From NCBI GenBank assembly GCA_013540605.1, contig JABVCK010000007.1, positions 27,231-91,230 on the forward strand: DNA of 64,000 bases. The letters run 5' to 3'. This document shows, one piece after another, positions 53,168-62,536 of this stretch; within the stretch, counting starts at the first letter, position 1; every line of letters begins with the position of its first letter. Position numbers and translations under genes: made by a program. The stretch is from Bacillota bacterium (lineage in GTDB: Bacteria; Bacillota; Clostridia; Ch29). The notes below the pieces were generated by a model. The model had not been told where the DNA came from. It searched no databases and was given only the letters and a program-made list of their open reading frames with translations.

Positions 53168-54538
53168 ATGGAATATGTAAATCCATTAGGTGAAGAGAAG
53201 GTATCAAAGCTTTTGGTGAAATTTTCGGTGCCCGCAATTGTAGGCATGATGGTTAACGCCTTATATAATGTCGTTGATAGGATTTTTATCGGCAACTGCA
53301 GGGATTTAGGCTCCTATGGTTTAGCAGGAATTACCATAGGTTTTCCAATTATGATAATACTTCTGGCAATCGGCATTTTATTCGGCGTAGGTGGAGCAAC
53401 CCTATTCTCCATAAGATTAGGCGAAAAACGGCAGGAAGAGGCTGAAAACGCCCTCGGCAATGCCTTTGTCCTATTGGTTATGGCAGGCCTTACATTTATG
53501 ATTTTGGGCCAGATCTTTTTAAAGCCCATATTATCCCTGTTCGGCGCCAGTGAAGCGGTGCTGCCTTATTCCATGCAATATATGCGAGTGATTTTCTTTG
53601 GAGCGGTTTTTCAGGTATTAAGCATTGGCATGAACAATTTTATACGCGCCGATGGCAACCCTAACATAGCAATGCTGACCATGTTTTTAGGTGCAGGTAT
53701 AAATACCTTGCTGGATCCGGTATTTATCTATGTTTTCGGAATGGGTATGGCCGGTGCGGCTCTTGCTACCATTCTGGCGCAGGCAATTTCAGCTGCATGG
53801 GTGGTAACATACTTTATAGGTAAACGCAGCAGAAACAAGCTTAGACTCAAATACATGAAACCAAAACTCCATATTGCAGTCAAAATAACCTCTCTTGGAC
53901 TCCCCGGATTTTCGATGCAGCTTGCCAACAGCCTTTTAAACATGATACTTAACAAGAGCCTGCTTATTTACGGCGGGGATATAGCCGTATCGGGCATGGG
54001 CGTGATAAATAGTCTCCAGACTATTCTTCTGATGCCTATTACCGGTTTAAACCAGGGCGTTCAGCCTATAATCAGCTTTAATTTCGGAGCGAGAAAATAC
54101 GGCAGGGTCAAAACTGCAGAAAAGCTTGCAATTATGGTTGCTACTGCGATCGTGGTGACAGGTTATATCATAACAAGACTGTTCCCTACGCAGATGATAG
54201 CCATGTTCAACCGGGAACCGGAGTTATTAAAATTTGGCAGTTATGCGCTGGTGCACTGGTTCCTGTGTTTGCCGGTTATCGGCTTTCAGATTATTGCAGC
54301 AAATTTTTTCCAGGCTATCGGCAGACCAAAGTCCTCCATGTTTTTAATCCTTACAAGACAGATTATACTTCTTATTCCGGCGCTAATTATATTCCCCAGA
54401 TTCTGGGGCATTACCGGTTTACTGCATGCGGCGCCGTTTGCAGATTTCTTCTCAAGCTTACTGACAGGTTTCTGGTTTTACTACGGTATTAGAAATCTAG
54501 AATCTGCACCACTCCTTGTCCGCCGTCAACCCTTCTAA
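53168..54538 (+). CDS. MATE family efflux transporter
   Basis: 456 aa, 12 TM helices, N-terminal KLL.KFS.PAI.GM..NALYN..D motif. Confidence 0.9.
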   Translation: MEYVNPLGEEKVSKLLVKFSVPAIVGMMVNALYNVVDRIFIGNCRDLGSYGLAGITIGFPIMIILLAIGILFGVGGATLFSIRLGEKRQEEAENALGNAFVLLVMAGLTFMILGQIFLKPILSLFGASEAVLPYSMQYMRVIFFGAVFQVLSIGMNNFIRADGNPNIAMLTMFLGAGINTLLDPVFIYVFGMGMAGAALATILAQAISAAWVVTYFIGKRSRNKLRLKYMKPKLHIAVKITSLGLPGFSMQLANSLLNMILNKSLLIYGGDIAVSGMGVINSLQTILLMPITGLNQGVQPIISFNFGARKYGRVKTAEKLAIMVATAIVVTGYIITRLFPTQMIAMFNREPELLKFGSYALVHWFLCLPVIGFQIIAANFFQAIGRPKSSMFLILTRQIILLIPALIIFPRFWGITGLLHAAPFADFFSSLLTGFWFYYGIRNLESAPLLVRRQPF

Positions 54539-55810
54539 GAAATAGGGCTGCAATTTTTCCTTCCATAAGGACAGCAATTCTTCCTTTGTCTTTGCTTTTT
54601 CAATACGCTCCCGTATTCCTATGCACCAATTGGGTGTACATTTCAGAAACCGGGACAAATTTTTAGAAGCTTTTAGTGAACTTTTTACCATGCGCATTAT
54701 TCTTGGAAACATCACCTTAATCACCTCTAAACGTGAAAAGGGGTGAAGGGGCATACCCATTCCCTCAGGTAATTCTCCATATAAATCGCTGATTAGCCTC
54801 AATGCGCCTTTGGCATTCTTGCCAAGTAAGGACGTTATCACAGATACCCTTCTGCTGATATTCATGTAGGGTCTTCCGCAAATGTTGCCGGAAAACACAT
54901 AATATCCAGGGATAAAATTCATAGCATCATCCAGCAGTCTTGCTATACTCCAGGAAAATGGAGGATAAACATCGGGTATTGCTTCTGCAACATTGGTATT
55001 GGTCCAAAGTTCATCACCCATCAGGGAATAATTAATTTCATAGGTGTCCAGGTTGCCTGCCGACAATGTTGTTATCGGCCTCGATTGCAGAAGGTATAAT
55101 TTTCCGTCCGCTACAGCCCATTCGATATCCTGAGGTTTGCCTAATTCCTTCTCAAGCTTTGCTGCATATTGATAAAGCTTTGTGGCGTATTTCTCGAACT
55201 CAGCGGGGCCTTCATATTTCCCTTTAGGTCTTGTCAGCTTGAAATCATAGGCGTTGGCCTCTCCTGATACAAGCTGCTCTCCCAATCCATGGACATAGTT
55301 GCCTATCATGCTTACAAAGCTTCCTGTAATGGGATCAGCGGTAAACAGTACGCCCGAAATTTCCGACTGCACCATCAATTGGACCACTACAGCAATCTCA
55401 TGAGACTGTTCCATACCCTGGACAGAGCTGTATGCCCTTACCCGCTCTGACTCCCTTGATCTGAAAACCGTATGGATGGCTTCCTGTATCTCTTCATCGG
55501 TTTTAGCATTTAAAACTGTTTCAAACTCTCCGGCAAAGGAGGCCTGGTCCGAATCTTCACTTAACGCGGATGACCTTACTGCAAACAAGGAGCCTTTATG
55601 CTTTTTGCGCATGTCATTCAAATAACCTTGTATCTGATGCCAGGCTTCAGGATTCAGTTCCTCCCCTTGAAAAGCCGGCGGTAAAACAACAAACCCTTCC
55701 GGTACAGGATAGCCTGCCTGATGCATTCGGGCCAGCATGCCACCCTTCCCTCCCGCAAGCGGCTGCAGTTCAGGCGTCAACTCTCTAAAGCTTTTAACCA
55801 TATTTGCCAT
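54497..55810 (-). pseudogene. PEP/pyruvate-binding (PPDK_N, rifampin-phosphotransferase-like) protein, apparently 3'-truncated
   Basis: 437 aa covering the ATP-grasp region plus the start of the middle domain. No phosphohistidine swivel domain. The last 14 codons are antisense to the end of the MATE gene (42-nt convergent overlap). Confidence 0.6.
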
Positions 55811-56452: not shown

Positions 56453-56460
56453 ACCTCCTA

Positions 56461-56489
56461 AAAACAGACCGACGTCGGTCTGTTTTTTT
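56461..56489. promoter_or_regulatory. Perfect 22-bp palindrome AACAGACCGACGTCGGTCTGTT (TetR operator or bidirectional terminator)
   Basis: Flanked by an A-run and a T-run. Lies directly upstream of the RBS of the TetR gene at 55823..56452. Confidence 0.5.
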
Positions 56490-56772
56490 AGTGTATACTA
56501 TTCCATTAAATTTGTAAAGCCCAATTGATAGAATTCTAATCTTTTAAAAACGCGGCTAAAAATGCAATACAAATCACCATCATCAATAAGGTAACTGTCA
56601 GTACAGTCCAATGCACTGAGGCCCTGTAAAAGACAATTCCATATACCAATGCACCGAATGGCATGCCACCCCTTGGACAGATCATAATGGGAGCGTTTTC
56701 CCACCTGTTCTATCCAATTCATGCCGCCCAGGTTGGCCGGTAGATCGCCTGCCGCTAAAATGACAGGTTCAA

Positions 56773-56825
56773 TAGCTAATATAAATTGACAAAGTAGCTA
56801 ATAATGCTTTATAATAATAGCTAAT
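56773..56825 (+). promoter_or_regulatory. Promoter with three TAGCTAAT operator repeats for Phd-Uma2 gene 1
   Basis: TTGACA (56786-56791), 18 nt, TATAAT (56810-56815). Exact TAGCTAAT copies at 56773, 56795 and 56818 (22-23 bp spacing). Confidence 0.65.
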
Positions 56826-56845
56826 ATAAGGGGTGAGGTGATATC

Positions 56846-57580
56846 ATGCGTATTAATACAACTGATTTGCAGAATGCTTTTGGAAAATATCTTTCGCTGG
56901 TAGAGAAGGAAGATATTATTATTACCAAAAACGGGAAGAGCGTCGCCAAACTCATCCGTTATAACGAACCTGATTTTTTTCTTGTTCATGAAGAATCTTT
57001 AAAATACAAATCGACCAAAAGAATCAGCTATGAAGAATATATGGCTCTGGTTGATTCCTCTGACCAAAGATATGAACTCATCGACGGTGAGGTTTATCTG
57101 CTGGCTTCACCAAGGTTTAACCATCAGGTTGTGGTGAACGAAATAGCATGGCATTTTTACAACTACTTTAGAGGAAAGCCCTGTCGGTCATTAACGGCGC
57201 CATTGGACGTGAGGCTGTTCGGTTATGCGACCAAGTTCGAAGAAGATCCCAATGTCGTCCAGCCGGATATTGTTGTGATTTGCGATCAAGACAAGGTCAA
57301 TGAGGACAACAAGTATGAGGGCATACCGACGCTGATTGTCGAAGTCTTGTCTCCATCTACCAAAGGCAAGGATATGGTTGCTAAACTAAGCCTGTACATG
57401 AAAAGCGGCGTTTCAGAATACTGGATTGTAAACCTGGAAAATAAAAGTATTCTTCAATACTCCTTTTCTCAAGAAAGGGATATAGAAGGCTTAACAAGCC
57501 TTCGGGAAGGAGATACCATAAAATCAACGGCTTTTGAGGGTCTGGAGATACCATTAAGGGATATTTTTGCTGAAATCTAG
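56846..57580 (+). CDS. Fusion protein: Phd/YefM-type antitoxin-like N-domain + Uma2 family (PD-(D/E)xK) endonuclease, paralog 1
   Basis: 244 aa. N-terminus MRINTTDLQNAFGKYLSLVEKEDIIITKNGKSVAKLI is Phd/YefM-like. C-terminus has YELIDGEVYLLASP ... VVQPDIVVICD ... LIVEVLSPSTKGKDMVAKL ... EYWIV, which are Uma2/DUF820 motifs. Confidence 0.8.
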   Translation: MRINTTDLQNAFGKYLSLVEKEDIIITKNGKSVAKLIRYNEPDFFLVHEESLKYKSTKRISYEEYMALVDSSDQRYELIDGEVYLLASPRFNHQVVVNEIAWHFYNYFRGKPCRSLTAPLDVRLFGYATKFEEDPNVVQPDIVVICDQDKVNEDNKYEGIPTLIVEVLSPSTKGKDMVAKLSLYMKSGVSEYWIVNLENKSILQYSFSQERDIEGLTSLREGDTIKSTAFEGLEIPLRDIFAEI

Positions 57581-57613
57581 CCAAACAGCAGCTCCATCAG
57601 CAGTCGCCGGGTT

Positions 57614-58381
57614 TTAAGGAAATATTGAAGACCCTGCAACTTCTAGGTCGGCAAACCAATAAGACCGGATTACATCCTGTTTTTGGTATGTCATAAAATG
57701 GTCGACATCCAAGTCTTTAAACCCATAGACCAGCACGACTTCCTGTTTGGGATCGATAATCCAATACTCCTTAACACCGGAAATCATGAAGGTATTCAGC
57801 TTATCCACCATATCTTTTGAGCGGGTGCCCGGCGACAATATCTCAACGACCAGGGCCGGCGTGCCCATGTACCGTCCTTTTTCATTGGTATTCTCATCCA
57901 CATCGCAGGCAATAATCAGATCCGGCTGCATAACATCGGGCTCCTTAAAGCCTTGTTTATGAAAATGCACATCAAAAGGAGCATAAAATACCTTGCACTG
58001 TTTGCCCTTGAGATACTCTCTTAATACAACATACAAGTTTCCGGAGATCTCCTGATGGGTTGTGCTTGGCGAACCTAACAACACGATTTCGCCATTGATG
58101 AATTCCATTCGCAAATCGCTTTTTTCATAGATCTCCATAAATTCCTCATAGGAGACCTTTTTACCGCCATACTGGTAATCCAAGGCCTTTTCTTTAATGG
58201 CGAAATAGCGGTCATAGTCCGTGATATAGGGCGCCAGCCGCACTGCTTTCTTACCGTTTTTGGTAATCACCACTTCATTATCGTCCATTACATAATCCAG
58301 ATACATGCCAAGATTGCTCTTTAGTTCTGTCGCGGTTATTGTTTTTTTGGCTTTGCCGTTGCCTCTGTCTTTATCTTTCAT
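57614..58381 (-). CDS. Fusion protein: Phd/YefM-like N-domain + Uma2 family endonuclease, paralog 2
   Basis: The ATG at 58381 lies 9 nt after GAGGTG (the ORF track starts at 58393). ITATELKSNLGMYLDYVMDDNEVVITKNGKKAVRL, then MEFINGEIVLLGSP ... VMQPDLIIACD ... LVVEILSPGTRSKDMVDKL ... EYWII. Confidence 0.8.
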   Translation of the reverse strand: MKDKDRGNGKAKKTITATELKSNLGMYLDYVMDDNEVVITKNGKKAVRLAPYITDYDRYFAIKEKALDYQYGGKKVSYEEFMEIYEKSDLRMEFINGEIVLLGSPSTTHQEISGNLYVVLREYLKGKQCKVFYAPFDVHFHKQGFKEPDVMQPDLIIACDVDENTNEKGRYMGTPALVVEILSPGTRSKDMVDKLNTFMISGVKEYWIIDPKQEVVLVYGFKDLDVDHFMTYQKQDVIRSYWFADLEVAGSSIFP

Positions 58382-58394
58382 AATTTCAATCACC

Positions 58395-58454
58395 TCGTAC
58401 GATTATTACAACACATCGTACGACTATTATAATAAATCGTACGATGTGTTGCAA
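58395..58454 (-). promoter_or_regulatory. Promoter with three TCGTACGA palindromic operators for Phd-Uma2 gene 2
   Basis: Minus strand: TTGCAA (58454-58449), 17 nt, TATAAT (58431-58426). TCGTACGA at 58395, 58416 and 58437, exactly 21 bp apart. Confidence 0.65.
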
Positions 58455-58490
58455 GCAATATTTTTTATATTCTTTGGCAAATAAAAGTTA

Positions 58491-59192
58491 TTAGTCCAAA
58501 ATATTCCTGAATTGTTCTACTATATTCTTACCTGTCTTTTTATCCTGTGGGATTGGAATATCAAATTCGTCTTCCTCATCATCATCAAAATCTCCATATT
58601 TTTCCCATACTGCATATAAAGTCCTGTAATCCTCATTTATAAGCTGCTGACGTACTTGAATTAGCAGGTTCAGCAATCCATCTTCAGCAGCAAAACTTAC
58701 GCCGTCTTCTCCATCACTTTCATCTTCCTCATTCTCGTCTTCGTAATCATCTTCATAATAACCCTCGTATTCGTCATATAAATCACCAATAAATGCCATA
58801 TCAACTCTGCAATATATGGCTACTACCACCCGGCTACCCTTGCTTTCTATGGAAATACCCAAATCATCATATCCACTGAATTCATATTTGCTTAAATTTT
58901 CTATCTGTTCTTCAGTGGTATTAAATGCAAGCGCAAAGGTCCACCAGTCATAACTCTCCCGGTACATCACATCATAATACTTCTCCATCAGCTTCTCCCA
59001 TCCGCCGGGTATGTCATATCCGTCAACGTTGTAAACAAAGCTGACTCTTCTTGATGTGGGGTCAGCCCTTCTGGAAAGGGAGGCTACCTCTGCTTTCTCT
59101 TTCTTGCCGAGCGCCTTATCTACGGCTAAGAACTCATAGGATGTAGAACTGTGGTCTGAAGCAAAGCCTTTTCTGATGCTTATTATCCTCAT
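58491..59192 (-). CDS. Hypothetical highly acidic protein
   Basis: The ATG at 59192 lies 8 nt after AGGAGG (the ORF track starts at 59216). D/E-Y-rich tracts (DLYDEYEGYYEDDYEDENEEDESDGEDG and GDFDDDEEDEFD). No family recognised. Confidence 0.6.
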   Translation of the reverse strand: MRIISIRKGFASDHSSTSYEFLAVDKALGKKEKAEVASLSRRADPTSRRVSFVYNVDGYDIPGGWEKLMEKYYDVMYRESYDWWTFALAFNTTEEQIENLSKYEFSGYDDLGISIESKGSRVVVAIYCRVDMAFIGDLYDEYEGYYEDDYEDENEEDESDGEDGVSFAAEDGLLNLLIQVRQQLINEDYRTLYAVWEKYGDFDDDEEDEFDIPIPQDKKTGKNIVEQFRNILD

Positions 59193-59218
59193 TTCAATTA
59201 CCTCCTGTAAGCTCATTC

Positions 59219-59704
59219 TTATATATTATTCATCCAAGACGGATAATTCCTATTATTATCCTCTTCAAGCCATTTCTCAATTTCCTCACGGGTTGCGTAT
59301 GGAAATCCTGCGTCAGTATAGCCTATGACATCCTGTATATCAGCTATGACATCATATCCATCTTCAGCATATTTTCTTTCATATAAAGGCTCGGGACATC
59401 CGGGGTCAGAACCGATGGCATCCTCTGCAAAGACTCTGCACCCGCCGCAGAAGGCTTTTGCCTGACATTTGCCACAGCTGCCGTTTTTAAAACTCTTTTT
59501 TTCTCTGAAGTCCCTGTATTTTTTAACTATATTGTTTCGATTCCAAATAGCTTCAAAATCCTCATTCAGCAAATTACCTGCGTAAAAAATATTCCCTACA
59601 AGCTGTGAGCAAGGATAAACAGAACCATCAGGCGCAACGGATATTATCCTCTCCCCTGCAACGCATCCTCTTATTCCTGAATATAAGGCTGTCTGCGGAT
59701 TCAA
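59219..59704 (-). pseudogene. SPASM/twitch-domain C-terminal fragment of a radical SAM enzyme (no radical SAM core)
   Basis: 161 aa ORF opening with TTG directly after an in-frame stop. GCVAGERIISVAPDGSVYPC ... CGKCQAKAFCGGC is the SPASM pattern. The CxxxCxxC core domain is absent. Confidence 0.6.
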
Positions 59705-59748
59705 TCTCCTCTTGCATCATTTACCAATAATATTCTATATTCTTTGAA

Positions 59749-59958
59749 TTAAACCCCTCCGCAGCATTTCTTATACTTTTTCCCACTTCCACATGGACAA
59801 GGGTCGTTTCTGCCTATCTTGGTCCTTGTCTGATTAACCATTTCCGTATATTGCCTAAGCGTTTTATTGAATGTTTCCGAATTAGTTATATCCAGCATGC
59901 CGCTTTTTAGCCCCTCCATAATAAATGTTTTTGCAGGACCCCAGCTGTCTGGATTATC
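59749..59958 (-). pseudogene. 3' fragment of a SEC-C-motif protein gene, cut by the IS remnant
   Basis: Own translation: ...[69 protein letters not shown]. The reading frame stays open up to the IS inverted repeat at 59959, where a TGA inside the IR closes it. Confidence 0.65.
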
Positions 59959-60598
59959 GGTTCAACAACGAATTTTGTGCTAAGTGGTAATACCCTGGTG
60001 TCAACTGGTAAATTCAAGAAATGAACTCATCGATTTTACCAGCGACTTGGAAACTTACAAATGTAAATCTCACTATATTTTATATAGTTTGGGTCAGGTG
60101 AGCTGAATACGATAATTGTTCCAGTAGTAATGGTTAGACCTAACCGCGGAATTCTTCCTTTAAGGCAAAACATTCACCGAGTTTTGGGTATTCATCGCAT
60201 ACTTTGAAAAGTCGATTCATCTCATCAGCCTCAAGGTCTTCGAAGTTCTTAAGCAATGCCCAGCGGATGCCGAATACCTTTTGTTTATCGCCTTCCTCCT
60301 CCCTGACTTTATTTTGAATGTGTTTTCTTGCATCGTCTACCTGGTCATGAAGCAGCTGTGATACATGAAACCTGTCAATAACCGGTTTAGCATTGGGAAG
60401 GGTTTCAAGCACCCCGTTACAATAACCCCTGCTCATATCCATCGCAACACCTTCTATACCATCGGTACACCTCCTTTTTGTTTTTATTGGCGTATAAAAC
60501 TATAAGGGAGGTTGCCGGATTTTTAAATACTTTTTACCAGGCATTTTCCAAGGTATTTTTTGGAGTTTTCAATGTGTCACAAACTTTAGGGATGAACC
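59959..60598 (-). mobile_element. Internally deleted ISL3-family insertion sequence remnant (about 640 bp)
   Basis: Terminal inverted repeats GGTTCAACAACGAATTTTGTGCTA (59959->) and GGTTCATCCCTAAAGTTTGTGACA (60598<-) match at 16 of the first 24 positions. They enclose an ISL3 transposase fragment. No matching 8-bp target duplication. Confidence 0.6.
60140..60442 (-). pseudogene. ISL3 family transposase fragment
   Basis: 100 aa. The pattern AMDMSRGY...PNAKPVIDRFHV...R is that of the DDE_Tnp_ISL3 central region. N- and C-terminal parts are missing. Confidence 0.75.
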
Positions 60599-60655
60599 AA
60601 TAAAAAAGATGAATCCCATGAGCGATATAAAGGTTGCAAAACCTTATTAATCCGC

Positions 60656-60714
60656 TTGACAGCACCAGCATTATTAAATACAATTAAATTAGCTAAAATA
60701 ATATATTAGCTAAT
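60656..60714 (+). promoter_or_regulatory. Promoter plus TAGCTAA(A/T) operators for Phd-Uma2 gene 3
   Basis: TTGACA (60656-60661), 17 nt, TACAAT (60679-60684). TAGCTAAA at 60690 and TAGCTAAT at 60707. Confidence 0.6.
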
Positions 60715-60729
60715 ACGGAGGTATATGCT

Positions 60730-61449
60730 ATGGAAATATCATCCACAGATGCGCAGAACAATTTCGGCCGCTATTTGAAACTGGCGCGGTTTGAAGACAT
60801 AATCGTCACTAAAAACGGAAAAAAGACGGTGGTCATTAAAGCATTTGAGGAACCCGAGAAAGGCTTTTCAACCATAGCCGAAAAAGCTGAAGGATATGAT
60901 TGGAAGAGTGAGAAGATATCCTATGAGGATTTCCTAAAGCTTTCGGAGGAAAGTGAAAATCGATATGAGTATATTGACGGGGAAGTGTACTTGCTTACCT
61001 CACCCTCCTATGATCATCAGAATATCATTATGGAAATATCCAATGTGTTTTATAACTGGTTTAAAGGGAAAAAATGCAGACCGCTGACGGCACCCTTTGA
61101 TGTAACGCTAACCAAGGATGGCAACAAGCATGTTGTTCAACCGGACATTATTGTGATTTGCGATACCGAAAACATTAATGAAAGGCGCAGATATACAGGC
61201 ATACCCACCATGCTAGTCGAAGTTCTGTCCGAGTCGACACAGCAGAAGGATATGCTGAAAAAACTTGATTTGTATTTCCATGGCGGTATAAAGGAATATT
61301 GGATCGTCAGCCCTTTGCGCAAAGAAGTCTATGCGTACTGCTTTGAAGAGCAGGACATCAAAGAGTACCGGGTGTATAAAGGGGCTGAGATAGTGCAATC
61401 TATGGCTTTTGACGGTTTGGAGATTCCCCTCGGGCAGATCTTTGCATAA
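60730..61449 (+). CDS. Fusion protein: Phd/YefM-like N-domain + Uma2 family endonuclease, paralog 3
   Basis: 239 aa. MEISSTDAQNNFGRYLKLARFEDIIVTKNGKKTVVI, then YEYIDGEVYLLTSP ... VVQPDIIVICD ... MLVEVLSESTQQKDMLKKL ... EYWIV. Confidence 0.8.
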   Translation: MEISSTDAQNNFGRYLKLARFEDIIVTKNGKKTVVIKAFEEPEKGFSTIAEKAEGYDWKSEKISYEDFLKLSEESENRYEYIDGEVYLLTSPSYDHQNIIMEISNVFYNWFKGKKCRPLTAPFDVTLTKDGNKHVVQPDIIVICDTENINERRRYTGIPTMLVEVLSESTQQKDMLKKLDLYFHGGIKEYWIVSPLRKEVYAYCFEEQDIKEYRVYKGAEIVQSMAFDGLEIPLGQIFA

Positions 61450-61483: not shown

Positions 61484-62536
61484 TCATTTTAGATTATATT
61501 TTTTCAAACGATAATGTAAGCGTTGTCTACTCATACCTAAGTCAGCTGCTGCTCTGGCAACGTTCCCCCTATTCCGTCTAACAGCCGCAATAATCGTCTC
61601 TCTTTCCTCCTTATTAGATAGGGACGTTCCTCCCGCTGAGGTGTGTCCCCCTTCATTATAGTGGCGCATGAACAGCTCTTCCAGTGTAGGAGGCTCCGCC
61701 GTCAGGGATTTGATCCCCAGGGGCGCCAGGGTCCGCATGACCTCCTCCATGGCGTTTGCGTCCACTGAAAAACGCCACTTTGTCCCCTGGCGGGATAGAT
61801 CATGGGCTCCGGGCAATCTGTCCAAACCTTCGGCAGAGTTGGCAGTCTCCACAGTAACAGTGGTACGGGTCAGGTGGCGCAGCTCCGCCAGGGTCCCTGA
61901 TTCCACAACCCGGCCTTGCCGGATGATGCCGATGCGGTCGCATGTAGCCTCAACTTCCGCCAGAATATGGCTGGACAGGAATACTGTCTTGCCTGACTGC
62001 TTTATTTCAGCGATATACTCCCGGAAGACCAGCTCCATCAGCGGGTCCAATCCCGATGTGGGCTCATCCAGGATGAACAGTTCGGCGTCGGAAGCGAAGG
62101 CCGCTACCAGGGCCGCCTTCTGCCGGTTGCCCTTGGAGTAGGCACGGCATTTCTTGGTGGGGTCCAGTCCAAAACGTTCCAGCAGTTCTTTGCGCCGGTC
62201 AGGGTCAACCCCCCCGTGCAATCTGCCAAGAAGGTCGATTACCTCACCGCCGGACAGATTGGGCCAAAGGGTGACATCCCCAGGCACATAGGCGATACGC
62301 CGGTGCAATGCCACCGCGTCACGCCAGGGATCGCCCCCCAGCAAAGCAACCTCTCCCGCATCCTTGCGCAGCATGCCTAACAGGATACGGATGGTAGTGG
62401 TTTTTCCTGCTCCATTGGGGCCGATAAATCCATACACCTCCCCTTTCTCCACTGTAAGATCGACACCACGTAAGGCCTGCTGCTTGCCAAAGGCCTTAGC
62501 GAGCTTCTTTATTTCGATAATATTCACGCTTAGCAC
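61484..62536 (-). CDS. ABC-2-type transporter ATP-binding protein whose ORF runs on into a Fis-type (HTH_8) DNA-binding tail; probable chimera
   Basis: Residues 1 to about 293 are a complete ABC ATPase (GPNGAGKTT, SKGNRQK, LFILDEPTSGLD, ending ..LEELFMRHY). The last 57 aa (..ERETIIAAVRRNRGNVARAAADLGMSRQRLHYRLKKYNL) look like the C-terminus of an NtrC-type activator. Confidence 0.7.
   Translation of the reverse strand: MLSVNIIEIKKLAKAFGKQQALRGVDLTVEKGEVYGFIGPNGAGKTTTIRILLGMLRKDAGEVALLGGDPWRDAVALHRRIAYVPGDVTLWPNLSGGEVIDLLGRLHGGVDPDRRKELLERFGLDPTKKCRAYSKGNRQKAALVAAFASDAELFILDEPTSGLDPLMELVFREYIAEIKQSGKTVFLSSHILAEVEATCDRIGIIRQGRVVESGTLAELRHLTRTTVTVETANSAEGLDRLPGAHDLSRQGTKWRFSVDANAMEEVMRTLAPLGIKSLTAEPPTLEELFMRHYNEGGHTSAGGTSLSNKEERETIIAAVRRNRGNVARAAADLGMSRQRLHYRLKKYNLK

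Follow-up and report, generated by a model that had tools for sequence, protein, structure and literature searches.

The three fusion genes and their promoters

The DNA studied here is a 64-kb stretch of contig JABVCK010000007.1 from a Bacillota bacterium (called the window below), in which 4.7 kb hold three genes, copies A, B and C, each coding for a single protein with an N-terminal domain of the Phd/YefM antitoxin type (N-domain) and a C-terminal domain of the Uma2 (DUF820) nuclease family. The genes lie as follows (aa, amino acids):

56846..57580, + strand: copy A, 244 aa; Phd/YefM-type domain 1-40, helix/linker 41-60, Uma2 PD-(D/E)xK domain 61-244
57614..58381, - strand: copy B, 255 aa from ATG 58381; architecture as in copy A plus a 12-residue basic N-terminal extension
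60730..61449, + strand: copy C, 239 aa; architecture as in copy A

The ATG at 58381 is taken as the real start of copy B, because the GTG at 58393 given by the mechanical list of open reading frames (ORFs) falls inside the ribosome-binding site GAGGTGA and the close homologues are 255 aa long; the gene coordinates of an earlier note on this DNA, this start included, are therefore correct. The two Pfam profiles expected in that note exceed their curated cut-offs in all three proteins, with 31.7, 33.4 and 34.0 bits in copies A to C for PF02604 (PhdYeFM_antitox; gathering score 29.8) at the N-terminus and 100-108 bits for PF05685 (Uma2; gathering score 27) at the C-terminus. The NCBIfam model TIGR01552 (phd_fam) is likewise over its cut-off in all three (25.7-33.5 vs 20.8), and phmmer matches the Uma2 part to 9y1l with E = 3e-23. 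The pairwise identity among the copies is 39-50%. With a hidden Markov model built from the three, no fourth copy is found within the window, nor does the window hold a stand-alone Phd-like or Uma2 ORF.

Upstream of each gene lies a promoter of the sigma-A type with palindromic boxes:

56773..56825, + strand: copy A promoter/operator, TTGACA (56786-91), 18-nt spacer, TATAAT (56810-15), 12/12 sigma-A match
56773-80, 56795-802 and 56818-25: three TAGCTAAT boxes of copy A, lying upstream of -35, within the spacer and just past -10
58395..58454, - strand: copy B promoter/operator, TTGCAA (58454-49), 17-nt spacer, TATAAT (58431-26), 10/12 match
58437-44, 58416-23 and 58395-402: three 8-bp TCGTACGA palindromes of copy B at an exact 21-bp spacing, in and past the promoter
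60656..60714, + strand: copy C promoter/operator, TTGACA (60656-61), 17-nt spacer, TACAAT (60679-84), 11/12 match
60688-96 and 60705-14, + strand: boxes ATTAGCTAA and ATTAGCTAAT of copy C, 3' of -10

Own sigma-A promoters studded with palindromes, as the earlier note described them, are thus present for all three copies (10-12 of 12 matching positions and 2-3 boxes each). The boxes are spaced by 17-23 bp across the -35/-10 elements and are TAGCTA-type in copies A and C and (T)CGTACGA-type (TCGTACGA) in copy B, where the third box (58395-402) abuts the ribosome-binding site. Window-wide, all of the TAGCTAAT words (6/6) and all of the TCGTACGA words (3/3) fall in the three fusion promoters, and none of 100 shuffles of the window reaches three matches to TCGTACGA. 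In genuine YefM and Phd systems the N-terminal domain represses the operon by binding palindromes that come in pairs over the -10 element and have a TGTACA/GTAC core (PMC1802561); the copy B box has the same GTAC core.

Domain architecture, active site and selection

The AlphaFold2 model of copy A, calculated for a single chain from an 80-sequence alignment, has a mean pLDDT (predicted local distance difference test) of 86.8. The N-domain shows the order b1-a1-a2-b2-b3 at residues 2-36 (pLDDT ~90), followed by a helix at residues 44-53 of low confidence (pLDDT 49-56) and, from about residue 61, by a confident Uma2 fold of the restriction-endonuclease-like type (pLDDT mostly >90 across residues 90-244). 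In Foldseek comparisons with the PDB, the Uma2 part finds 6okh, 9y1l, 3ot2 and 1wdj, all solved Uma2 proteins, with E = 3e-15 to 6e-11 and target-normalised template modelling scores of 0.78-0.88. The local matches of the N-domain are 6jqy, the phage P1 Phd DNA-binding domain (4zlx/3hs2) and 2odk, with probabilities of 0.99-1.0, and the root-mean-square deviation from the VapB46 N-terminal domain is 1.1 Å over 41 residues. The two-domain architecture read from the letters alone is confirmed in this way by Pfam, NCBIfam, the AlphaFold2 model and Foldseek.

Residue conservation was counted over 80 diverse family members. E77, D141 (of QPD), E166 (of EVLS) and K180 are invariant (80/80), as are R75, H93, Q94, D121, D147, T172 and D176, and position 175 is K or R in 79/80. 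The pattern matches the PD-EXX-K variant with a relocated lysine described by Feder and Bujnicki for COG4636 (PMC551604), and both sequence and predicted fold place the C-terminal 185 residues clearly in Uma2/DUF820/COG4636. The earlier statement that the catalytic motifs are intact in all copies stands as far as these invariant residues are concerned, with one correction: the invariant lysine is K180, not K175 of the 'T..KD' motif. The same counts bear on the view that the protein is a transcription factor only, in which the Uma2-like domain would be without catalysis and serve oligomerisation or ligand sensing. Catalytically dead, nucleic-acid-binding PD-(D/E)xK folds are known (discussed in PMC551604), and conservation as high as this is reminiscent of a housekeeping regulator; however, the invariance of the predicted catalytic residues and the restriction of paired boxes in the window to the genes' own promoters make this view highly improbable.

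For clade A, the relatives of copy A, the ratio of nonsynonymous to synonymous substitution rates (dN/dS) is ~0.09 overall (N-domain 0.06, linker 0.16, Uma2 0.09), at a dS of ~1.1-1.5; orthologues of copy A overall are 76-99% identical. Judged from these rates, every segment is under long-term strong purifying selection, with neither recent transfer nor decay. The clade-A orthologues (L001-L029) retain 76-86% amino-acid identity between Bacillota classes with synonymous sites saturated, and recent horizontal spread as the source of ~80% identity was rejected on the value of dS (~1-1.4). Such conservation is, on the sequences compared, far above what is expected of an accessory toxin or defence gene.

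The Phd/YefM part of the proteins is short. The PF02604 match covers profile positions ~2-53 of 74 (it ends at 47-53 in the three copies), and in YefM and Phd the N-terminal domain binds DNA, while the C-terminal half is the toxin-binding part (PMC1802561). The DNA-binding fold of YefM has the topology b1-a1-a2-b2-b3-a3 (PMC11980606), and helix 44-53 of our model is, in order, its alpha-3. As far as sequence and predicted fold tell, the copies hold only the DNA-binding/dimerisation part of Phd/YefM, and the toxin-neutralising tail is replaced by the nuclease. The type II antitoxins of YefM-YoeB, Phd-Doc and Axe-Txe have the same N-terminal fold, b1-a1-a2-b2-b3(-a3), and, like the fusions, repeated short palindromes over their own promoter, the latter recognised here from the DNA sequence. 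The fusions differ from them in lacking the toxin-binding segment and an adjacent downstream gene for a Doc-, YoeB- or ParE-type toxin, and in the covalent joining of the N-domain to a nuclease of an unrelated superfamily. Since both the toxin-binding tail and a partner toxin are missing, the fusion protein is, by its predicted content, not a Phd/YefM antitoxin in the functional sense.

The truncation matters most for the possibility of a single-chain toxin-antitoxin, in which the Phd-type part, including helix 44-54, would keep Uma2 inactive in cis until it is set free by proteolysis or by a phage trigger, in the manner of CapRel or fused YefM-YoeB. Fused single-gene toxin-antitoxins are a recognised class (CapRel and the YefM-YoeB, HigB-HigA and ParE-Phd fusions), some of them anti-phage (PMC9712102, PMC11980606), and the YefM-YoeB fusions are predicted to form dimers via YefM and to bind their own promoter (PMC11980606). 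Our proteins share with this class the presence of an antitoxin-type and a toxin-type domain in one polypeptide, the toxin status of Uma2 being a prediction (PMC2701414). The segment after the N-domain has near-invariant E49 and Y54 (77/80 each) and A51 in 63/80, and this conservation, together with purifying selection (dN/dS 0.16), makes it more than a linker; the Uma2 domain also matches a PADLOC defence candidate, PDC-S03 (E = 4e-60). On the other hand, the PF02604 match stops at ~53/74, before the toxin-binding part, and the poorly modelled helix 44-53 corresponds to alpha-3 of the DNA-binding fold rather than to a tail that neutralises a toxin. In 80 loci (the best 80 of at least 294 from a scan of one genome per species) Phd and Uma2 were never seen as two separate genes, nor was a two-gene ancestor found. 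The domain content does not support cis-inhibition, and we consider it unlikely; the earlier picture of an antitoxin-type domain tethered to the effector is, in the sense of neutralisation, not supported. The Phd-domain::Uma2 fusion is not among the fused toxin-antitoxins described in the literature searched.

In respect to PADLOC, the PDC-S03 models match the Uma2 part with E = 4e-60 to 1e-16 (for PDLC04832, E = 4e-60, 1.5e-56 and 7e-60 in the three copies). These models span 188-207 residues and, unlike the fusions, are without the N-domain, and the sampled fusion neighbourhoods are not defence islands. PDC-S03 itself is a single-gene defence candidate only, and the literature yields no paper on it. 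A typical Uma2 protein is ~188 aa long, lacks a DNA-binding domain and is best known from cyanobacteria and Thermus, whereas the fusions, which come from anaerobic Bacillota, have an extra N-terminus of 55-75 residues of the Phd/YefM type and a conserved operator-promoter. Common to both are the habits of the Uma2 family, namely solo genes, several paralogues per genome and paralogue cassettes (PMC551604, PMC2701414). The family has also been described as a 'likely solo toxin' (PMC2701414).

Operators, occurrence and genomic setting

The boxes are conserved throughout the family. At least two TAGCTA words within 100 nt upstream are present for 62/95 fusion genes, as compared with 11/1178 other ORFs and 58/9674 background 100-nt windows. 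In the 28 loci of clade A the sole conserved non-coding block is TAGCTAA-N-TTGACA-N3-TAGCTAAT-N-TTAnAAT-ATAGCTAA-...-GGTGA-ATG, and the conserved DNA extends from box 1 through the stop codon and nothing beyond. The promoters of clade B have CGTACGA-type boxes in all 7 cases examined, and the clade-C relatives L040, L049, L044, L057, L063, L069 and L078 share the promoter layout of copy C. The box type co-varies with residue 9 in helix 1 of the N-domain, which is Q in 61/62 TAGCTA-type genes and K in 7/7 CGTACG-type genes; in sub-clades where an otherwise A/C-like domain has K9, the boxes are variants, for instance TTAGCTGA or TTAGCCAA. The idea of self-repression, already put forward in the earlier note, is now backed by this family-wide conservation and co-variation, both read from sequence.

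The architecture is common. Searches with copies A, B and C give 3489, 2643 and 1817 proteins, respectively, at E <= 1e-5, with the best 120 at 77-100%, 69-95% and 63-100% identity, and the close relatives of each copy are nearly all ~240-260 aa long with both domains present. They already carry database names ('type II toxin-antitoxin system Phd/YefM family antitoxin', 'prevent-host-death family protein', 'Uma2 family endonuclease'), and the architecture is not a rare one. The absence of a functional description, also remarked on then, is confirmed in that the literature yields none; the Phd::Uma2 fusion is abundant and named in databases, yet functionally undescribed. The best 80 loci are all from Bacillota or Bacillota-type genome bins, their hosts including Syntrophomonas, Desulfosporosinus, Desulfitobacterium, Dehalobacter, Pelotomaculum, Anaerovirgula, Paenibacillus, Lentibacillus and Halanaerobiales. 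The description of the genes as triplicated does not hold: the copies are only 39-50% identical, and each has 88-99% identical relatives elsewhere. As each copy belongs to its own clade of close relatives, whose members in further Bacillota are 85-95% identical to it, three old lineages stand side by side and not the products of a local amplification. Dehalobacter genomes hold both an A-type and a C-type gene.

Among the Uma2 representative clusters at 50% identity (24,479 at profile E <= 0.001), the N-domain is present in 46 of the best 150. Proteins with two Uma2 domains in tandem, 380-600 aa long, are frequent in these clusters (P0383, P0387, P0388, P0392, P0395, P0432, P0468). Uma2 domains with other DNA-binding domains often adjoin the Phd::Uma2 genes, as in the HTH_17 (MerR/excisionase-like)::Uma2 genes at L007 7509-8261, L046 9995-10753, L004 6005-6817 (- strand) and L036 6548-7108, and protein P0485 combines HTH_3 with two Uma2 domains. 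The promoters of the HTH_17 genes at L007 and L046 contain repeated AGTTGA words. From these HTH_17 and HTH_3 fusions, the theme of a DNA-binding domain plus Uma2 is broader than the Phd fusion.

No partner gene was found in the window, and all-against-all clustering of the flanking ORFs of the 80 loci shows no conserved neighbour, the clusters being generic only (ABC ATPase, ECF sigma factor, PadR, MatE, MarR). A two-gene toxin-antitoxin is rejected on this ground; a stand-alone N-domain ORF, as a split Phd + Uma2 pair would need, is likewise absent from the 80 loci. The earlier observation that no separate toxin or antitoxin gene accompanies the copies thus extends from the window to these loci. 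Where annotations were read the neighbours are ordinary: aldehyde dehydrogenase and pseudouridine synthase genes in one Dehalobacter, comEA/comEC and leuS in another, and alcohol dehydrogenase and S-layer-homology protein genes in Syntrophomonas wolfei. Of 79 loci, 13 have a second, or a third, member of the family no more than 6 kb away, which agrees with the Uma2 'cassettes of paralogous genes' of Makarova et al. (PMC2701414).

The regions next to the genes are rearranged. The features concerned are listed below; those from 58491 to 60442 are context and lie outside the system.

56756..58473 (1.72 kb): convergent A-B pair with both promoters, 93% nucleotide identity to contigs L081 and L082, flanks differ
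58491..60442, - strand: rearranged patch between copies B and C
58491-59216, - strand: acidic ORF, 241 aa, immediately 5' of copy B and co-oriented with it, D/E runs in its very acidic C-terminal half
59219-59704, - strand: SPASM-domain C-terminal piece of a radical-SAM enzyme, 161 aa
59749-59919, - strand: SEC-C-motif ORF, 56 aa
60140-60442, - strand: ISL3 transposase piece, 100 aa, profile positions 60-156 of 240

In L081 and L082 the A-B block lies between an ABC transporter and a TetR/Rph/MFS cluster, and the stretch corresponding to 58.5-60.5 kb is absent. The acidic ORF, which has no match in Pfam, NCBIfam, PADLOC or PHROGs, is missing from both contigs and is therefore not a conserved partner of copy B. 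The decayed, rearranged surroundings noticed earlier are real, as seen from the ISL3 transposase, SPASM and Rph-like fragments and from the lack of the patch in L081/L082.

The copy-B promoter itself differs between these two contigs. Compared with L081 (2930-3060), L082 (2400-2525) is without the DNA that separates CGTACGA box 1 from box 3, the -10 element included, and a single box is left before the ribosome-binding site; this looks like a deletion by recombination between operator repeats. On the left of copy A, the 437-aa ORF at 54497-55810 (- strand) looks like a truncated copy of an intact 873-aa PPDK_N/Rph_4th/PEP-utilizers protein in L081 (5453-8074), which is rifampicin-phosphotransferase-like by sequence. 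The 3' end of the L081 MFS gene and the DNA downstream of it find a match of 76-86% at 56460-56675 of the window. The sequence suggests that DNA immediately to the left of copy A was deleted or rearranged. Beyond copy C, an ABC-transporter ATPase-like ORF of 350 aa (61484-62536, - strand) ends, by eye, in a Fis/NtrC-type helix-turn-helix (…GNVARAAADLGMSRQRLHYRLKKYNLK), which would be an unusual fusion; many long spurious opposite-strand ORFs around it suggest a locally raised G+C content.

The setting of the genes bears on a further reading, a site-directed endonuclease or selfish mobile gene, in which the N-domain would aim the nuclease at TAGCTA/CGTACG boxes or related sites in naive DNA in a restriction- or homing-like manner. 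It would account for scattered single-gene insertions, and COG4636 genes have been proposed as selfish elements proliferating in genomes (PMC551604). What is conserved is the promoter and the ORF and no more, the flanks being unrelated from genus to genus; the 1.72-kb A-B block recurs in a different context, and TAGCTA is somewhat rare outside the promoters of the window (6 observed vs ~15 expected, although 64 kb is too little for this count and the shuffles ignore codon effects). A homing target, however, would not keep 2-3 intact sites beside the gene, and no methyltransferase partner is present in the loci whose gene annotations were read. The position of the gene is syntenic within Dehalobacter, which speaks for vertical inheritance, and saturated dS means that the spread is not recent. 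On plasmids and phages the fusion was not found, the matches there being to the bare Uma2 domain alone at <40% identity. At the block ends (clade A loci and the A-B block) no terminal repeats, target duplications or conserved downstream sequence were seen, and a mobile cassette marked by such repeats or downstream sequence is rejected. We regard the site-directed nuclease as improbable and count it, with the purely regulatory protein, among the weaker rivals.

A proposed autorepressed nuclease gene and its meaning for the Uma2 family

The reading that we favour, at a probability of roughly 55%, is that each gene is a self-contained, tightly autorepressed gene for a stand-alone, potentially toxic Uma2 nuclease, kept for defence or addiction. 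The N-terminal 40-55 residues would fold as a dimeric DNA-binding domain of the Phd/YefM type and bind the 2-3 palindromic boxes lying over the near-consensus sigma-A promoter of the same gene. Occupancy of the boxes would keep transcription low and self-limiting and would fix the level of a potentially dangerous nuclease, with the Uma2 domain, a predicted intact PD-EXX-K nuclease, as the effector. As the toxin-neutralising tail is absent, we infer that the role of the N-domain is to set the dosage, with DNA tethering and dimerisation as further possible roles, and not to cover the active site. Copies A and C could cross-regulate, since they share the box type and Q9, and copy B would be orthogonal to them. 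In favour of this reading are the two domains and their predicted fold, the invariant active-site residues, purifying selection, the conserved boxes with their co-variation at residue 9, the GTAC core shared with known antitoxin operators, and the Uma2 paralogues that carry other DNA-binding domains.

Several points weigh against this reading. Defence and toxin genes do not usually keep ~80% identity between bacterial classes, as these genes do, and the sampled neighbourhoods consist of ordinary housekeeping and transport genes and are not defence islands. The Foldseek E-values of the N-domain are weak (0.06-0.2), which is due to the shortness of the domain, and a sequence profile of the N-domain only, run against PDB sequences, gives 3k6q as the best match (E = 0.009) and no convincing Phd/YefM structure. 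By a simple word count, 16/95 family promoters have neither box type, some of these having a misplaced start codon or a variant box, e.g. TTAGCTGA or TAGCCA. The literature on Uma2, DUF820, COG4636 and PDC-S03 yields no functional or biochemical study of any Uma2 protein, and nuclease activity and toxicity are for this reason predictions.

A more speculative and rather doubtful extension of the autorepressed nuclease is a sensor-effector. The dimeric N-domain would park a few nuclease molecules on the boxes of its own promoter, at once repressing the gene and sequestering the enzyme, and a loss of the tether or a burst of de-repression, for instance when phages attack, when DNA is damaged or when the locus is lost, would free active Uma2. 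The paralogues would be kept orthogonal by the operator-specificity switch (Q9/TAGCTA, K9/CGTACG). If true, it would be the first mechanism, and the genes the first tractable model, for the Uma2 superfamily.

In general, the presence of the fusion is unsurprising in principle, and its value lies in a clean, testable way into a very large uncharacterised nuclease family. Uma2/DUF820 is among the larger bacterial families without an experimentally known function, although crystal structures have been available since 2004, and twenty years of predictions have named its members 'selfish element', 'solo toxin' and 'defence candidate'. The analysis also corrects a habit of annotation, in that thousands of nuclease fusions of 240-260 aa carry the label 'type II toxin-antitoxin system Phd/YefM family antitoxin'. 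As an experimental handle, the Phd-fused subfamily offers a defined protein-DNA pair, a strong promoter and a predicted specificity-switch residue, and the three copies, orthogonal or cross-talking within one 4.7-kb stretch, make a natural test set.

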